A stretch of 64,000 nucleotides of DNA. It comes from a virus. A model generated the notes under the pieces. That model made no database searches. It worked only from the letters and a program-made list of their open reading frames with translations, and had not been told where the DNA came from. Positions 39,270-51,166 of this stretch are shown here, piece after piece. Every line of letters begins with the position of its first letter. The stretch's first letter is position 1. Position numbers and translations under genes: made by a program. The stretch is taken from positions 1 to 64,000 of the IMG/VR virus record IMGVR_UViG_3300010367_000050, one strand, 5' to 3'.

Positions 39270-39806
39270 CTAGGAAAGAACGACGGTGCTCCCGATGTTC
39301 ATGCCATTCGAGCTAACCCCGCCACTGACTTGAACCGAGCCAGACGTGGGAATGTAGCGGTCCACGTTGAACTTCAGCTTGTCGATGGCGTTACCCTCAC
39401 CAAGCTTGTCGAGGTCAGCCAGATCGATATCAGCCGGATAAACTCCCCAGAGTTCATGGCGCTCCACAATCGTGACACCATCAGCAGAGTACTCCACGAT
39501 TGAGATGTTCTTCTTGTAAATCTCCGGAGTTGCCATGGCGCCGGATTGAAGATTGACGATGAGAGCAAGCCAATCCTTCCACCAGACAGCTGCTGACTCC
39601 GAGGGTTTGAGGGTTTCCATCTCAAGCTGCCCGAAGTTGACGCGGGAAGCTGTGTTGACGGTGAAGGGGCCATCGCCATGCTTGGCGGAGGCGACTTCAA
39701 ACTTGGGAAGCTTGACCTTCTGCGCATAAGCAGTATCAAGTCCTTCCACTTCCACCGCAAAGCGGTAGACTTTGCGCGGATTGATTTGACGTCCAATTGC
39801 TGCCAT
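39270..39806 (-). CDS. tail tube protein (T4 gp19-like)
   Basis: YRFAVEVEG, WWKDW, YKKNISIVEY, GVYP..DLD. Confidence 0.9.
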   Translation of the reverse strand: MAAIGRQINPRKVYRFAVEVEGLDTAYAQKVKLPKFEVASAKHGDGPFTVNTASRVNFGQLEMETLKPSESAAVWWKDWLALIVNLQSGAMATPEIYKKNISIVEYSADGVTIVERHELWGVYPADIDLADLDKLGEGNAIDKLKFNVDRYIPTSGSVQVSGGVSSNGMNIGSTVVLS

Positions 39807-44032: not shown

Positions 44033-45109
44033 TTAGTACAGAGGCGCCAGGAAGCTGGGGAACGCCGCCGTGCTGGACTTGTCGAGGATAACGCGCGCAT
44101 CACGGAACACGTTCATGAATCCCGTGGTGGTGGACACGTATGTGGAGTTGATCTGGCGCTGAACAATGCGGTCGGACTCCACGGTGAGCGGAACAGCGGT
44201 CAGCTGAACGGCGGCCAGGGTGGGGTCAACCATGAGCAGTTGGTTGGCGGGGATGGTGTTATGGGTGTAGGCGTCGATGTCACGCGGAACCGGGGTCTTG
44301 GTGTTCAGGCCCAGTTCGGAGTTGCCCACCTTGGCGGTCTTGCGGAACTCATCCATGTTCAACATGTAGTTGATCATGTCCTCGTTGCCGATAACCTTGG
44401 TCCACTTGCGGTTGCGGAGCGAACCACGTACGAACACCTTGATCAGGTCAGCATAGGTCATCGTGCCGTTGACGGCCACGCCGACTGTGCCCGAAGACTC
44501 GGAACCGTCAGCCTGATCGCCGTTGATGAGAACGCTGATCAGATCGCGGGTCAGGCGCGAACCCAGCTTGATGCCCACATCCTGGAGGAAGATGGATAGC
44601 ATGGAGACGCTGGTGTAACGGATGGCTTCGTCAACCAGTTCCAGGCCGATGCCGCGCTTGCCAATGTGTACGGTCTTCTGACCGTACTTCAGCGAACCCA
44701 GTTCCATGGACTCGCCGGCACCGAGGTCTTTGGGCTCGTTGTTGAGGCCAGTGGTGTCCCAGAACGGGGCAACCTGCGTGGGCTGCGCCACGGTCTCTTC
44801 ACGGATGATGAAGTCACGATAAATGGGGCTGTTGATGAAGCCCTTGCGAATGGCGTCACGGAAAATCTCCGGCACCAGCCAGCGTACGGCCTCGTCTTGG
44901 CGGTCCAGAATCTGGGTGACGGTCACGTTGGTAGGATCAATGGCCAGTTCCTCGTACAGTTTTTCAACTGTATAGGGCGTGGTATTGTCGCAGTCCATCG
45001 TGTAGTTGTCCTTCAGGTGCTGGGACAAAGTAACGTCAAAACCCTTCTGACGCTTCGCCTCCATCTCCTTGTGGAGTTTCTTGGGTGAAAGCTGTTCCTT
45101 CCGTTCCAT
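44033..45109 (-). CDS. major capsid protein (HK97 fold, putative)
   Basis: Start MERKEQ with AAGGAG RBS; WLVPEIF, KRGIGLELVDEA, LINGD; strongly biased codons; terminator downstream. Confidence 0.85.
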   Translation of the reverse strand: MERKEQLSPKKLHKEMEAKRQKGFDVTLSQHLKDNYTMDCDNTTPYTVEKLYEELAIDPTNVTVTQILDRQDEAVRWLVPEIFRDAIRKGFINSPIYRDFIIREETVAQPTQVAPFWDTTGLNNEPKDLGAGESMELGSLKYGQKTVHIGKRGIGLELVDEAIRYTSVSMLSIFLQDVGIKLGSRLTRDLISVLINGDQADGSESSGTVGVAVNGTMTYADLIKVFVRGSLRNRKWTKVIGNEDMINYMLNMDEFRKTAKVGNSELGLNTKTPVPRDIDAYTHNTIPANQLLMVDPTLAAVQLTAVPLTVESDRIVQRQINSTYVSTTTGFMNVFRDARVILDKSSTAAFPSFLAPLY

Positions 45110-45161
45110 GTTTGCTTGTCTCCTTGAATGAGGTTGAAGTTGCGTTGAGGGTGGGAAGGAA

Positions 45162-45542
45162 CTAGCCCCTGGGGACCACTGAGATGGTTGCGCCGGTGGC
45201 TCCACCGTTGAGAGCGATGCCGAAAGCAAGTGGAATATCCGTGGCGACTGTTGCCGGAGCCGCCGGAATCACTGTGTTTGCGGCAGACATCTTGACATTG
45301 TTGCCGGCAACGACAGCGGTTGCTCCAACCGTGACCTCGAAAATCTGAGCAGCAAAGAGTTCAACAACCACAGTGCCCTTGTACTTGTCGATGGTGATGA
45401 CGCGGCCAATGGCCCGGCCAGTCGTTGCGGTGGTAACCGTGAGGTCGCCGCTGATCTGGACCAGGTCATTCACCGCAGCCGTTGAGATGCTGGCGTGGGT
45501 GAAGCTCTGGGCTACAATCCCCTGACGCTGAAACTTGTTCAT
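45162..45542 (-). CDS. capsid decoration/cement protein
   Basis: 126 aa Ala/Thr/Gly-rich, FGIALNGGATGATISV, upstream of the capsid gene. Confidence 0.7.
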   Translation of the reverse strand: MNKFQRQGIVAQSFTHASISTAAVNDLVQISGDLTVTTATTGRAIGRVITIDKYKGTVVVELFAAQIFEVTVGATAVVAGNNVKMSAANTVIPAAPATVATDIPLAFGIALNGGATGATISVVPRG

Positions 45543-47058: not shown

Positions 47059-47910
47059 TCATTCAACAGAGTACGCCGGTGTTTCATTTTCAGCATAAAA
47101 ATCCTTGAATACTGTACGGTGGCGGCACTCCGGGTGGAATGGGGGCACTTCATAACCGAGGGCTTGTAACTCTGCGTCAGAGGAGTTTTGCAAGTCTTCA
47201 TAACTGATCTTGCCTTTCAAGAACGGCATGAATGATTCATAGTCCTGGCTTTGGGTCAGAGAGTCCAACCGCGACAATGACGACGATAACGTGAATACAC
47301 GTCCAATCATGTTACGGCAAAACTCACAGGTCTTCAGATCGTCAGGGCCAGCAATCTCAAACGTCTGAACATGGGCTTGGCGCATGTTGTTTAGCTGACC
47401 AAACACCCTGGACCTCGACACGGTTGTGTTCACGATCTGACGAATCTTGGCTCTGTCATTGCCTAGTAGGTCTCCAAAAGTGGAGATGAATGCGTCCATC
47501 TCCTTACGGTCAGTTGCGATCGATCTACCGTTTTCAATAAATGCCTTCCGTATGTAATCCATCACCTTGGTCTTCAACTCTTCGCTTTCAACGTACTTGG
47601 CAATATAGCTCTGAGAAGCGAGGTCTAGGAACTTGATGGCACGATAGTCAGGGAGACGCAGAAACGAGCGAGGCAATTGTGAATCAGAGGCCACCAAAGC
47701 CCTGTAAATCTCCGAAGTCTGTGACGCTATCATGTTCTTGAACCGGCGAGAGTTCAACTTGATGCCGTATTCCTGGGTCAAAATGGAGTACAAGCTATTG
47801 GATATCTGCGTAAGGTCAGCCGGATTGAGCTCAGCTGAGCCAAGATAGTGTATGATTCTATCAAAGGCCGAGGCTTCGGCGTCATCGAGTTGTGCCAGAA
47901 TTATGCTAAA
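47059..47910 (-). CDS. MuF / SPP1 gp7-like head morphogenesis protein, probably reached by +1 frameshift from portal
   Basis: IVNT..SR..G, DLKTCEFC..MIG, PPFHPECR; frame open from 47910 with no ATG/GTG/TTG before an SD-less TTG at 47793. Confidence 0.8.
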   Translation of the reverse strand, partial: FSIILAQLDDAEASAFDRIIHYLGSAELNPADLTQISNSLYSILTQEYGIKLNSRRFKNMIASQTSEIYRALVASDSQLPRSFLRLPDYRAIKFLDLASQSYIAKYVESEELKTKVMDYIRKAFIENGRSIATDRKEMDAFISTFGDLLGNDRAKIRQIVNTTVSRSRVFGQLNNMRQAHVQTFEIAGPDDLKTCEFCRNMIGRVFTLSSSLSRLDSLTQSQDYESFMPFLKGKISYEDLQNSSDAELQALGYEVPPFHPECRHRTVFKDFYAENETPAYSVE

Positions 47911-47919
47911 GATACCTCC
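47905..47919 (-). promoter_or_regulatory. prfB-like +1 programmed frameshift cassette
   Basis: GGAGG TAT CTT TAG C at the portal stop. Confidence 0.7.
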
Positions 47920-49498
47920 GATATTTGGATTTTAGTTCGTCTTCCTGTTTGGACAGAGACACAGGCGGCATTCCAGCATCCGTGCGAAGCGTGTTGAGTA
48001 CCTCAATAGGAGTGTCCCGCTTGAAGTAGTATTGCTTCATCTCCTTGTTGTAGGCGAACTGAACAGACGCTTGTTCCTTGGGCTGCTTTTTCTTGGGGTT
48101 CTTTGGGGTGTTGTCTGTCTTTCCACCGGTACTCGGGCGTTGATCCAGGTTCTTGTCTTGAGCATTCGGGTCCACACGGGGTTCAGCTTGGTCAGGCACA
48201 GCATAACCAAGTCTGTTTGCCTTCTCCGTCTGGTCAATGACGCCACCGTTGTACAGAGCTTCGGCGTTGGCGATGTCGATCATCTCAGCCTGAGCCTTCT
48301 GAAGGTTACTCAAGGCCTGTGATTCGTTGAAGCCTACGCAAACTTGCGCTGTGATGCCAGCCATTAGCAAGTCCAAGCCCCATCCAAAGTCCAAGCTCTT
48401 ACCCACTAGTCTCTGATAGTTGGTAAGCTGAGACACCATCTTGGAGTGCACCACGCTGGCATATGTTTCTGTAGTGCTGTACGTTCTGCCGTGCATGGCG
48501 GGGTCTGCCATGATCGCAGAGAACAGCTGTTCCTCGTTCATCTTGAACAGATCGTTGATGCCGCGCACGTCACTAGTGACACTCTTCACGTCGAACTCAA
48601 ACGCACCCTGAAACCCAGCGGCGATGCCGTCTCCAAAGGAAGTCTTCAGGTTATCTGTAACCTGGTTCAAATAGGCCAAGCAGCGAGCAGTGTATCTGTC
48701 CTGATTCTCACCGGGGTTCTGTTTTGGAGGAGTGACCTTGTAAGTCATCAGACCCATGATACCAACCTTCTTGATAACCTTGTTGATGTTACGAAGCATC
48801 GCCTGCTGTAGAGCTACCGGCTGGAGAGCAGCAATGAATGGAGGAACAGCGTATGGGCTGTCTTCGATAGTCTCAGCGTTGGCGTAGAAGTAGGTCTTGA
48901 GGTTGAGCTTTACAGCGTTGCGGTAGTTATCCAAGGCCAAGACAGTGTTACGGGGAACCTGCACGGGATAATATCCCATACCGTCCTGCCTAGGTACCCA
49001 CCGAATGTCTCGCACGGGTACAAAGAACACTTTGTCAATACCAGATAGATTGTTGGTAGGCACCCACTCAGTGGAGATAGCTCCCATGCGAGCGACCTGA
49101 GCAAAGATACCGTTGATCAGTCCGTCTGGGCCTCCGCCAAACGGATACATGACGTCAGCGCGGTCGCGGATACGCTGTACCGCAGCTTCGATCACTGTGT
49201 CACTCTCGCCCTTGACGCTCAACAGATGACCCGTGTTCCCTAGTTGCACGATGTGACCCACAGCCTGCCGGATATCGGGATTGATCAGGCTGAGATTGGC
49301 GATGGCTTCATAGATAGCGATAGGCCACTTGCGGGGCAGAGTGAAGTCATACTCACCCTTCAACTCTGAGATTAGCAGTCCAGGGTCATCAGGTGCCGAT
49401 ACGCGAGTGACAGGCAGTCCACTAACGTCCGTTGTCTGCGTCACTGACTTCGTTGTATTTTTGGCTCGAAGCCCTGTTATCCAATCTCGAAATCCCAT
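47906..49498 (-). CDS. portal protein
   Basis: 530 aa directly after the large terminase; SPYAVPP, LYNGGVIDQTE..LGY. Confidence 0.85.
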   Translation of the reverse strand: MGFRDWITGLRAKNTTKSVTQTTDVSGLPVTRVSAPDDPGLLISELKGEYDFTLPRKWPIAIYEAIANLSLINPDIRQAVGHIVQLGNTGHLLSVKGESDTVIEAAVQRIRDRADVMYPFGGGPDGLINGIFAQVARMGAISTEWVPTNNLSGIDKVFFVPVRDIRWVPRQDGMGYYPVQVPRNTVLALDNYRNAVKLNLKTYFYANAETIEDSPYAVPPFIAALQPVALQQAMLRNINKVIKKVGIMGLMTYKVTPPKQNPGENQDRYTARCLAYLNQVTDNLKTSFGDGIAAGFQGAFEFDVKSVTSDVRGINDLFKMNEEQLFSAIMADPAMHGRTYSTTETYASVVHSKMVSQLTNYQRLVGKSLDFGWGLDLLMAGITAQVCVGFNESQALSNLQKAQAEMIDIANAEALYNGGVIDQTEKANRLGYAVPDQAEPRVDPNAQDKNLDQRPSTGGKTDNTPKNPKKKQPKEQASVQFAYNKEMKQYYFKRDTPIEVLNTLRTDAGMPPVSLSKQEDELKSKYRRYL

Positions 49499-49540: not shown

Positions 49541-51166
49541 CTAACTGAACAATACCGGTAGGTTCACTGAATGCTTGTAGCGGGCTCTTGCTAGCTGTGC
49601 TATCAACCAGGCCAACACCAAGTCGTCGTTGTACCCGTCATTAGCTCTTGGGTTAGGCTTGCGAGTTTCCTGAAAATTGAACACCAACATCTCGTTGAGC
49701 AAACGCAAACTGTTTATGAGAAGAACTGCTTCAGGAATATGCCCTTTCTGGCGTAATTCCTCATGCTCTCTGATGAGCTCTTCACCTGCTGAGATAAGTA
49801 CCGGGCGGTTGGCTGAGGTCGTGGTAAATCCAACAATCAGTGTCTCTTCATTGGTAACCGTTTGAGTGTTCGCCTCTTCATCGATGGTAGCATCTTCCTT
49901 GATGTAAGTGTACAGATTGGGATAGTTCTTGTCAATCATCTTCTGTACAGTTACAAGACCAACACCGTTCCGCTCGATTACAACCTGTCCCCAGTTGTAG
50001 TACTTTCCAATAGCGAACAGATACGACGCAAACACGTTTGGCTTGCAATGAACCCGCATCTCTGCCGCTTGCTCGCCGGTCTCCCACTCCACTACTTGTA
50101 TAGCATGAAAATCACTTCCGTCTCCAGTAGCGGAGTCCGCTCCAATGATGTATAGCTTTCCAGGAACAGGCTTCTTGAAGATGTACAGCCCCTCGGCCTT
50201 CTTCCCATAAAGTCCATCGTAGTCATCAAATCTCTCTGGGGCATACAACACTTTACCAATTTTACGAGTGCGAAGCACCTCAGACCAATCAGATAAAATG
50301 GTAGTGTCGAACACAGGACGGCCAGAGTTCAAAAAGTCGCAGTCAACCTCCTGAGCGCATAGTGCCGGGCCAAGTTCCCGCCTCTGCATAGCATACCACT
50401 TCTCATCCCGCTCAGGGTGCATCTTCCAATGAAGCCTTATGGGATTGAAGTCTGACAGCTTACCTACGGCGTCTCTCCACTTGCCAGCAAACCAATTGCC
50501 TAGGCCATTAGCTGTAGAGATAGCAATGGCTTGTCCGCCCGTCGACAGAGTGGGAAAAGCCGCACCCCAAATCTTGTCAATCCACCTTACAAAGGCAGCT
50601 TCGTCAATGATCAGAAGTGATAGACCTTCTGAACGGCCTGCCTCTTCAGAAGTCGGCACAGACATGATTCTGGAGTTGTTCTCGAACACAATTGTACTGG
50701 TGTTCCACTGCGCTGCGAGAGGGCCTTTTAGCCACAACGGTAAATGACGGTAGGCATACTTGATTTTGTCGAGGAAGCGTTTCGCAGTCTCTTCCTTGAT
50801 CGAGATGATGACCACGGTCTTATCCGCACGAAACATCGCGTACCAGAGAGCAAATAGAGCTACAAGCCAGGATAGTCCCATCTGACGAGGCTTCAACACG
50901 ATGTTGAAGACGTGAAGCAGAAACTGCTTCAGAGCAATCCTCTGGAAGGGATACAGCTTCATAGGGATACGGCCCTTGACTGGGTCTTGTATGTAGCAGT
51001 AATTATGTATGAAATGAATGGGGTTGGCCGCACACCGTAGCCACTCCTCGACCTCTGGACCCTTTGGGTCTCTACCAGGTAGTTCAGAGAATCCCCACGA
51101 TAACCGCGTGGAGTCAAACTCTATCTCATATTTTTTGATCTTGATCTTGCCTAGCAGCTTTTTCAC
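49541..51166 (-). CDS. terL: terminase large subunit (T4 gp17-like)
   Basis: LYPFQ, KPRQMGLSW, LIIDEAAF, STANG, GADSATG, NDDLVLA. Confidence 0.96.
   Translation of the reverse strand: MKKLLGKIKIKKYEIEFDSTRLSWGFSELPGRDPKGPEVEEWLRCAANPIHFIHNYCYIQDPVKGRIPMKLYPFQRIALKQFLLHVFNIVLKPRQMGLSWLVALFALWYAMFRADKTVVIISIKEETAKRFLDKIKYAYRHLPLWLKGPLAAQWNTSTIVFENNSRIMSVPTSEEAGRSEGLSLLIIDEAAFVRWIDKIWGAAFPTLSTGGQAIAISTANGLGNWFAGKWRDAVGKLSDFNPIRLHWKMHPERDEKWYAMQRRELGPALCAQEVDCDFLNSGRPVFDTTILSDWSEVLRTRKIGKVLYAPERFDDYDGLYGKKAEGLYIFKKPVPGKLYIIGADSATGDGSDFHAIQVVEWETGEQAAEMRVHCKPNVFASYLFAIGKYYNWGQVVIERNGVGLVTVQKMIDKNYPNLYTYIKEDATIDEEANTQTVTNEETLIVGFTTTSANRPVLISAGEELIREHEELRQKGHIPEAVLLINSLRLLNEMLVFNFQETRKPNPRANDGYNDDLVLAWLIAQLARARYKHSVNLPVLFS

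Follow-up and report, generated by a model that had tools for sequence, protein, structure and literature searches.

In the viral DNA analysed here, the portal gene of an uncultured soil phage ends in a sequence resembling the programmed frameshift site of prfB, the gene of release factor 2 (RF2), and a reading frame encoding a MuF-like head protein continues from this site in the +1 frame. The window, which denotes the whole stretch of 64,000 nucleotides (nt), covers positions 1 to 64,000 of the IMG/VR record IMGVR_UViG_3300010367_000050, an 80,508-bp virus from a soil metagenome that is 99% complete according to CheckV. Judging from the sequence, we consider it probable, at roughly 0.8, that some ribosomes change to the +1 frame by a programmed shift of the prfB type on the final sense codon of the portal gene and thereby fuse the MuF-like protein to the portal. 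This proposal had been put forward in a first-pass annotation of the window, and it gained support from the invariance of the cassette in related phages, from an invariant leucine at the shift site, from the lack of a conserved start codon for the MuF frame and from the colinearity of the shifted product with natural portal-MuF fusions.

The portal gene and the sequence of the junction

The portal open reading frame (ORF; positions 47906..49498, minus strand, frame 0) encodes 530 amino acids (58.8 kDa) and has the C-terminus ...KSKYRRYL followed by TAG. It matches the portal protein profile phrog_3753 of the PHROG database (E 1.2e-79) and lies directly downstream of the gene encoding the large terminase TerL (49541-51166, minus strand; PF03237, phrog_2); both the profile match and the location after the large terminase place it in the portal family. 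A Pfam search returned no match at E<=0.01, portal models included. The ATG at 49498 is preceded by a GGAG-type Shine-Dalgarno (SD) sequence. The public portal call is shortened to 485 amino acids (P0011, 47906-49363) in comparison with the 530-amino-acid ORF.

The 3' end of the gene reads, on the minus strand, CGG (47920-18) AGG (47917-15) TAT (47914-12) CTT (47911-09) TAG (47908-06) C (47905), exactly as the first-pass annotation had given it for 47920-47905. Within the portal coding sequence an SD-like GGAGG (47915..47919), the putative stimulator, is located 3 nt ahead of CTT. The SD core, the presumed E-site codon TAT and the presumed slippery P-site codon CTT together make up the ten nucleotides GAGGTATCTT (47909..47918). 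The shift site CTT TAG C (47905..47911) comprises the Leu codon CTT (47911-47909), the T at 47908 that would be skipped, the TAG (47908-47906) and the following C (47905). The three T's at 47908-47910, on which the proposed change of frame depends, were recovered without any insertion or deletion in Logan contigs from two soil samples of one study; the record possibly derives from one of these samples.

In the +1 frame the junction reads TTT AGC ATA ATT CTG and so forth, and this frame stays open down to 47059. The MuF/gp7-like coding sequence thus defined (47059..47907, minus strand; stop at 47061-47059) comprises 282 amino acids after the shift (32.2 kDa). Eight codons upstream of the junction the +1 frame is closed by a TAA (47932..47934), which together with the TAG confines the shift to an interval of 26 nt. 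The assignment of the MuF frame to +1, its closure upstream by TAA and the absence of an SD sequence at its first TTG (47793) were all as first annotated. Readthrough of the TAG was considered and rejected as a route to an extended portal, frame 0 extending by just 8 codons to a TGA. No tRNA genes were detected in the window, which therefore provides neither a phage suppressor nor a phage tRNA-Leu.

The motif by itself is within chance expectation and the argument from the single genome is weak: GGAGGNNNCTTY occurs twice in the window compared with 0.75 expected occurrences, and GGAGG is present in 66 copies on the minus strand. The case consequently rests on the position of the motif and on its conservation in relatives. 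The only other copy of GGAGGNNNCTTY (39687-39698, plus strand) lies opposite minus-strand genes and is probably a chance match.

Conservation of the cassette within the clade

Related loci were sorted by architecture by running the portal and the +1 protein with tblastn against all fetched loci. The window forms a clade with the loci L001, L002/L080, L003 and L059, and in this clade the MuF frame is always located in +1 relative to the portal. The junction was read at the DNA level in these five lineages, which share 51-62% amino acid identity in the portal and 37-47% in MuF, and their sequences were aligned by codons over 2,532 nt, with pairwise nucleotide identities of 55-61%. At the protein level the clade is represented by 28 portal clusters with identities of 48-64%, the full-length ones comprising 528-565 amino acids. 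A scan of IMG/VR for the junction DNA pattern and two scans with portal profiles revealed no further lineage of this clade; likewise, no close relatives were obtained from a single-protein scan of IMG/VR or from a tblastn search of cultured phages with the MuF protein.

The junction of the window (CGG AGG TAT CTT TAG C) corresponds to GCG AGG TAT CTT TGA C in L001, AGG AGG TAT CTT CGG C in L002/L080, CGG AGG TAT CTT TGT C in L003 and CGG AGG TAT CTT CAA G in L059. All five lineages carry AGGTATCTT at the junction together with MuF in +1, and in all five GAGG and the E-site TAT are invariant. The base 3' of CTT is T or C in each of them, so that a peptidyl-tRNA-Leu could re-pair on UUU or UUC. 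The run GAGGTATCTT is the longest invariant run of the whole five-lineage alignment, the runner-up being 6 nt long. Among the 237 invariant amino acid columns only 11% use the same codon in all five lineages, and of the 43 invariant amino acid triples RYL alone is encoded by identical codons throughout. AGG, TAT and CTT are not preferred codons in these contigs.

The portal proteins of the clade agree with this picture. The motif R-[Y/F]-L is present at the portal end in 28 of 28 clusters, the residue encoded at the E site being Tyr or Phe in all 28 tails, and Leu530 is invariant across the 27 aligned portals within an otherwise variable tail. As judged from the proteins only, the tails ...ARGYL and ...TRGYL fit the literal prfB sequence AGG GGN TAT CTT. 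What follows the leucine is variable: a stop in 11 of the 28 clusters, and Arg, Gln or Cys in the other 17, in which it opens a non-conserved tail of 8-10 residues. The corresponding A-site sense codons CGG (L002), TGT (L003) and CAA (L059) are minor codons in their own contigs (3-9 per 1000; in L059, for instance, CAA is used 11 times and CAG 91 times). Minor sense codons at the A site fit pausing at a slow codon (PMC2790909), a fit that is suggestive only. The tails themselves (..D.AGC[CS]; P0012-P0037) were considered as a peptide signal in their own right and dismissed as a by-product of the conserved QLDxAE of the +1 frame; the stop terminating the 0-frame tail derives from GCT GAx of the overlapping +1 codons.

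The expectation that GGAGG-N3-CTT-stop would be conserved as a unit was thus borne out in part. GAGG, TAT and CTT are retained in five of five lineages; the stop is not, being TAG in the window, TGA in L001 and a sense codon in L002, L003 and L059. Hence the stop is not what is conserved. Due to the sense codons at the A site in 17 of 28 lineages, a coupling of the product ratio to release factor 1 (RF1), which had been suggested from the UAG of the window, is not supported as a general feature and would at most be local to this genome.

The same variation bears on termination-reinitiation, by which ribosomes would restart in the MuF frame near the portal stop with neither an SD sequence nor a canonical start codon. 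In the window, in L001 and in 11 of the 28 lineages altogether, the portal stop is located directly at the start of the conserved MuF sequence, and an overlapping stop-start coupling (CTGATG) does occur in the locus L044, a relative outside the clade. However, there is no start codon at or near the portal stop in the window, L002 and L059, and 17 of the 28 lineages have their portal stop 8-10 codons into the conserved N-terminal part of MuF, so that a restart would delete conserved residues. Since reinitiation also leaves the invariance of CTT and TAT unexplained, it seems very improbable.

The MuF-like reading frame and its missing start

The protein encoded in the +1 frame is called MuF-like here on account of its gene position and of remote and fold-level similarities; it does not qualify as a member of the Pfam family. 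It matches PHROG profiles of the "head morphogenesis" and "minor head protein" families (E 1e-10 to 1e-5), and E values of 1.6e-7 to 5e-5 apply to the set that also includes "minor head protein and DNA pilot"; its score against the Pfam family PF04233 (Phage_Mu_F) is below threshold (13.7 bits at a cut-off of 29.6, E 0.11), and the MuF proteins of L044 and L068 likewise stay below threshold in the same part of the profile. Among the relatives in which portal and MuF are fused in frame, one carries a precomputed PF04233 annotation and one was labelled "SPP1 gp7 family" by JGI. An AlphaFold2 (AF2) model of the +1 protein has a mean predicted local distance difference test score (pLDDT) of 74, and its best Foldseek matches in BFVD are annotated as "minor capsid protein", "phage head morphogenesis domain" and "GpF-like" (E 2e-7 to 1e-3), with TM-scores of only 0.3-0.5. 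A comparison of the MuF alignment with the single sequences of SPP1 gp7 and Mu F by hhalign was not significant and aligned only the short motifs TE..R and PP..CR, and a sequence profile search of the PDB gave no meaningful match.

The first canonical start codon in this frame, a TTG (47791..47793, minus strand) without an SD sequence, is located 38 codons past the junction. It does not seem plausible as the real start, because the 38 codons ahead of it are conserved coding sequence: homologues with 40-47% identity (281-304 amino acids) span 97-99% of the +1 ORF, these codons included. The public gene call for MuF (P0003, 47059-47733; 224 amino acids) starts at an internal ATG at codon +58 (47731..47733, minus strand), which is a conserved internal Met and not the start.

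Separate initiation of MuF is the alternative for which most can be said. According to this explanation GGAGG would act as a ribosome binding site for one of the codons ATA, ATT or CTG behind it, or starts specific to single lineages would be used upstream of the junction, and the ten invariant nucleotides would be kept by the demands of the two overlapping frames. GGAGG is a perfect SD sequence, and in the window 27 of 30 late genes possess a GGAG-type SD sequence 5-9 nt ahead of their start, so that the host ribosome reads such sites. ATA and ATT are located 10 and 13 nt past GGAGG in the window. In L001, L003 and L059 a TTG or ATG is present 5-16 codons upstream in the +1 frame, starts of this kind were chosen in 9 of 24 gene calls, and the sequence GGIF is conserved in the +1 frame. 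Separate MuF genes with an ATG of their own moreover exist outside the clade in L044 and L068.

Against separate initiation, no start-capable codon is conserved 10, 13 or 16 nt past GGAGG among the five lineages: the codon at 10 nt is ATA, CTG, CAG, CAA and CAG, and that at 13 nt is ATT, GTT, ATA, GTC and CTT. Unlike the 27 late genes mentioned, the MuF frame has no GGAG-type SD sequence paired with a start. Canonical starts are absent from the MuF frame between codons -8 and +37 in the window and between codons -22 and +17 in L002. The upstream starts in L001, L003 and L059 occupy non-homologous positions and lack good SD sequences, and the TTG in the "MRGIF" group arises incidentally from the portal codons for Phe/Leu-Ala. 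The +1 frame upstream of GGIF is not conserved and in the window is closed by the TAA. The called MuF N-termini of 24 clusters fall on at least six positions, the outermost being 20 codons ahead of the junction and 58 codons past it. With a start of its own, MuF would furthermore miss the initial 10 residues of a helix that runs unbroken in the natural fusions described below. Taken together, these observations make separate initiation unlikely. Amino acid identity in the individual frames upstream of the cassette was also tried as a means to discriminate between the frames; this region is a variable linker and proved non-discriminating.

As a side observation on starts in the late region, the ORF encoding a protein similar to major capsid proteins (44033-45229) has its first possible start at a TTG (45229, minus strand) without an SD sequence, and its real start is probably located downstream.

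Colinearity with natural portal-MuF fusions

In about 40 distinct relatives at a greater distance (25-39% identity in the portal, 24-38% in MuF), a single ORF of 735-860 amino acids encodes both portal and MuF (in-frame fusion set: L004-L069, L082, L094, L095 and L098). The window does not conform to this arrangement of a single uninterrupted ORF, its MuF being located in +1 and its portal frame ending at the TAG (47908-47906). A few relatives outside the clade (L044, L068) possess a separate MuF gene whose own ATG overlaps the portal end. Relatives with an independent ATG and ribosome binding site and without the cassette, which would have spoken against the frameshift if they belonged to the clade, were found only there.

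Conceptual shifted products were built from the portal up to and including CTT, with one base dropped and the +1 frame appended. The product of the window has a calculated length of 812 amino acids (91.0 kDa), in agreement with the size first estimated, and those of L001 and L003 have 819 and 825 amino acids, respectively. In a MAFFT alignment of the shifted products with 34 natural fusions no gap occurred at the junction, where ...KSKYRRYL followed by SIILAQLDDAEASAFDRII in the window is aligned with ...GDAARRYL followed by AEIREMLSEAGRIG in L016 and with ...RRDQSYV followed by AALEAVLEGPEEAAIAAAL in L014. The same result was obtained by tblastn against the fusion of L094: the portal query aligned through its last residue (DELTNRVRKYL, end nt 2841) and the +1 query aligned from its residue 8 (LNIVLPFNQAANAKATEVVIKYI, from nt 2839), and these two separate alignments abut on the same Leu codon, which is TTG and has no SD sequence. 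The cassette was absent from the homologous codons of the 34 in-frame fusions, with no SD-like run ahead of them; the Tyr is encoded there by TAT or TAC, and the Leu position is occupied by GCN, GTC, ATG, CAG, TTG and others.

An AF2 model of the natural fusion of L016 (m4397d0dc7802; L016:1459-3711; 751 amino acids, pLDDT 75.7) comprises, in this order, the portal fold, a disordered linker (residues 394-453) and a helix (residues 457-490, pLDDT about 90). The equivalent of the junction follows residue 466 and hence lies within this helix, which implies that initiation downstream of the portal stop would deprive MuF of the opening turns of its first helix. The conservation on both sides of the junction is explained by one continuous polypeptide.

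The predominance of in-frame fusions among the relatives raises the question of whether the split arrangement is non-functional, that is, the result of a frameshift mutation, of an assembly or sequencing error in an in-frame fusion, or of RNA polymerase slippage on the T run. One extra base would suffice to split such a fusion, and a short T run is indeed present at the site. Yet the arrangement is common to five deeply diverged lineages and to the 28 protein clusters, with intact and conserved MuF frames, and five independent assemblies as well as identical contigs from two samples speak against an assembly error. Transcriptional slippage was rejected in view of the length of the T run, which is 3 nt and only 2 nt in L002 and L059; a run of 2-3 nt is far below the length needed for slippage of the transcribing polymerase. 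We consider a non-functional origin the least probable of the explanations weighed here.

In-frame fusions are frequent in prophage-like regions of metagenome-assembled genomes (MAGs) of Desulfobacterales, Desulfuromonadales and Desulfosarcinaceae (L045-L055); members with split frames were not found in the GTDB representative genomes. The natural fusions connect the portal to the first MuF helix by a disordered linker of about 60 residues, which in L018, L062 and L065 contains Cys-rich inserts (for example CHCNICSC) that possibly form a metal site. The MuF ORF of L028 comprises 1000 amino acids. The separate MuF ORFs are also longer (L044:2866-6126, from a prophage in a Sumerlaeia MAG, about 1087 amino acids; L068:2629-4680, about 684 amino acids), and their additional C-terminal parts show weak Pfam matches that are kinase-like (APH, HipA_2) or SprT-like. 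These long ORFs of L044 and L068 resemble known fusions of MuF with cargo or toxin domains.

Proposed mechanism

According to the proposed mechanism, the P site of a ribosome at the end of the portal gene would be occupied by peptidyl-tRNA-Leu paired with CUU and its E site by tRNA-Tyr paired with UAU, with the GGAGG 3 nt upstream pairing with the anti-SD sequence of the 16S rRNA. The A-site codon would be read slowly, being UAG in a weak context (UAG C) in the window and UGA or a minor sense codon in the relatives. In some ribosomes the tRNA-Leu would then re-pair from CUU to UUU (UUC in relatives), and translation would resume in +1 at AGC. Two products would result, the 530-amino-acid portal (59 kDa) and a portal-MuF fusion of 812 amino acids (91 kDa), the predicted tryptic junction peptide of the latter being YLSIILAQLDDAEASAFDR. 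In the fusion the flexible portal tail of about 60 residues would continue into the first MuF-like helix. The fusion would carry MuF into the procapsid bound covalently to a part of the subunits of the dodecameric portal, giving rise to mixed rings. The anatomy of the junction, the conservation of the cassette, the lack of a conserved start and the colinearity with natural fusions are observed; that ribosomes shift, how often they do so and what mixed rings would be good for is what we infer. The notion that most ribosomes would make the portal and a minority the fusion could not be upheld, as this proportion is not readable from the sequence and prfB-type reporters span about 10-90% (PMC6815119).

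Several points weigh against a programmed shift. The DNA of the cassette was read for 5 of 28 lineages, the remaining 23 being known as proteins. In the portal tree the five split-frame sequences form one group (100/100; long internal branches of 0.34-0.49), which indicates that the cassette arose once and that its conservation represents retention and not recurrence. A stop codon at the A site is present in the window and in L001 and is lacking in 17 of 28 lineages, L002, L003 and L059 among them; without it the strongest stimulator of the prfB site is missing, and shifting may be weak in these lineages. The nine called MuF proteins (of 24) with an ATG, GTG or TTG upstream of the junction, such as the TTG in L001, may reflect separate initiation in the lineages concerned. 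Translation of both overlapping frames would likewise be expected to conserve GGIF in +1.

Comparison with known recoding sites and portal-MuF systems

The junction of the window resembles the prfB site (AGG GGG UAU CUU UGA C) in the SD-like run 3 nt before the P site, in the UAU at the E site, in CUU followed by a pyrimidine and in the stop codon followed by C at the A site. Like prfB it seems to do without a downstream RNA structure: no conserved structure was found near the site (-6 kcal/mol, with an unfavourable covariation term). In prfB-type reporters shifting amounts to 40-90% with the SD-like element and to about 10% without it (PMC6815119), and an effect of the E-site codon has been described (PMC2790909, PMC6815119). 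In contrast to prfB, where the site is located near codon 26, the site in the window stands at the 3' end of a gene of 530 codons. The shift would extend an already complete protein by a second module and would not be required for a sole product, and an autoregulatory loop is lacking, since what is made is a portal protein and not a release factor. The stop, furthermore, is UAG in the window, and 17 of 28 lineages have a codon for Arg, Gln or Cys in its place.

Another parallel is provided by the SPP1 tail tube proteins gp17.1 and gp17.1*, which are produced at a ratio of 3:1 by a +1 shift at CCC UAA (PMC6316719). There, as is proposed for the window, ribosomes change to +1 on the final sense codon, where slip site and stop overlap, and a structural protein is made in a short and a C-terminally extended form. 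The two sites differ in the slippery codon (CUU instead of CCC), in the SD stimulator, none being described in SPP1, and in the gene concerned, which is a tail gene in SPP1 and the portal gene in the window.

In SPP1 the MuF family protein gp7 binds the portal protein gp6 and enters the procapsid in few copies (PMC6316719). The order of the genes, portal followed by MuF, is the same in the window. Unlike the arrangement proposed here, gp7 has its own start and binds gp6 non-covalently, and most relatives of the window use an in-frame fusion, by which each portal subunit carries a MuF. Such in-frame portal-MuF fusions have also been reported for the Microbacterium phages of subclusters EA3, EA5 and EA8 and of cluster EB (PMC7302621), which are likened to the product of the window by their description. 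The natural fusions of the family itself (735-860 amino acids) have the same domain order and size as the shifted product and are colinear with it to the codon. They are encoded in one ORF and yield the fusion only, whereas in the window the extra base together with the slip signal would permit both products from each mRNA.

Implications for the phage head

Both prfB-type +1 shifting and portal-MuF fusions are known. A +1 recoding event that joins portal and MuF was not described in the literature searched, and full-text searches yielded no description of portal-MuF recoding. Gene callers cut MuF genes of this kind at an arbitrary internal Met (224 instead of 282 amino acids in the window) and miss the 91-kDa product.

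If the proposed reading is correct, the prfB-type +1 signal acts outside release factor genes as well, at the 3' end of a long structural gene and with UAG or sense codons at the A site. As a tentative and rather doubtful extension, a clade of at least 28 soil phage lineages might have co-opted the RF2 signal to control how many MuF domains a portal ring carries, with the A-site codon serving as a tuning knob. UAG and UGA would then couple the ratio to RF1 and RF2, respectively, and with the minor codons for Arg, Gln or Cys it would depend on the tRNA supply, so that the composition of the vertex would report the translational state of the cell.

The portal forms the single special vertex of the tailed-phage head, and to our knowledge every structural model of a portal assumes twelve identical subunits. 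If the frameshift takes place as proposed, some phages build mixed rings and set the fraction of subunits that carry a covalently attached MuF domain with a DNA-pilot or cargo function. One family of phages would thereby link three arrangements, namely a separate MuF, an in-frame fusion and a MuF gated by a frameshift.

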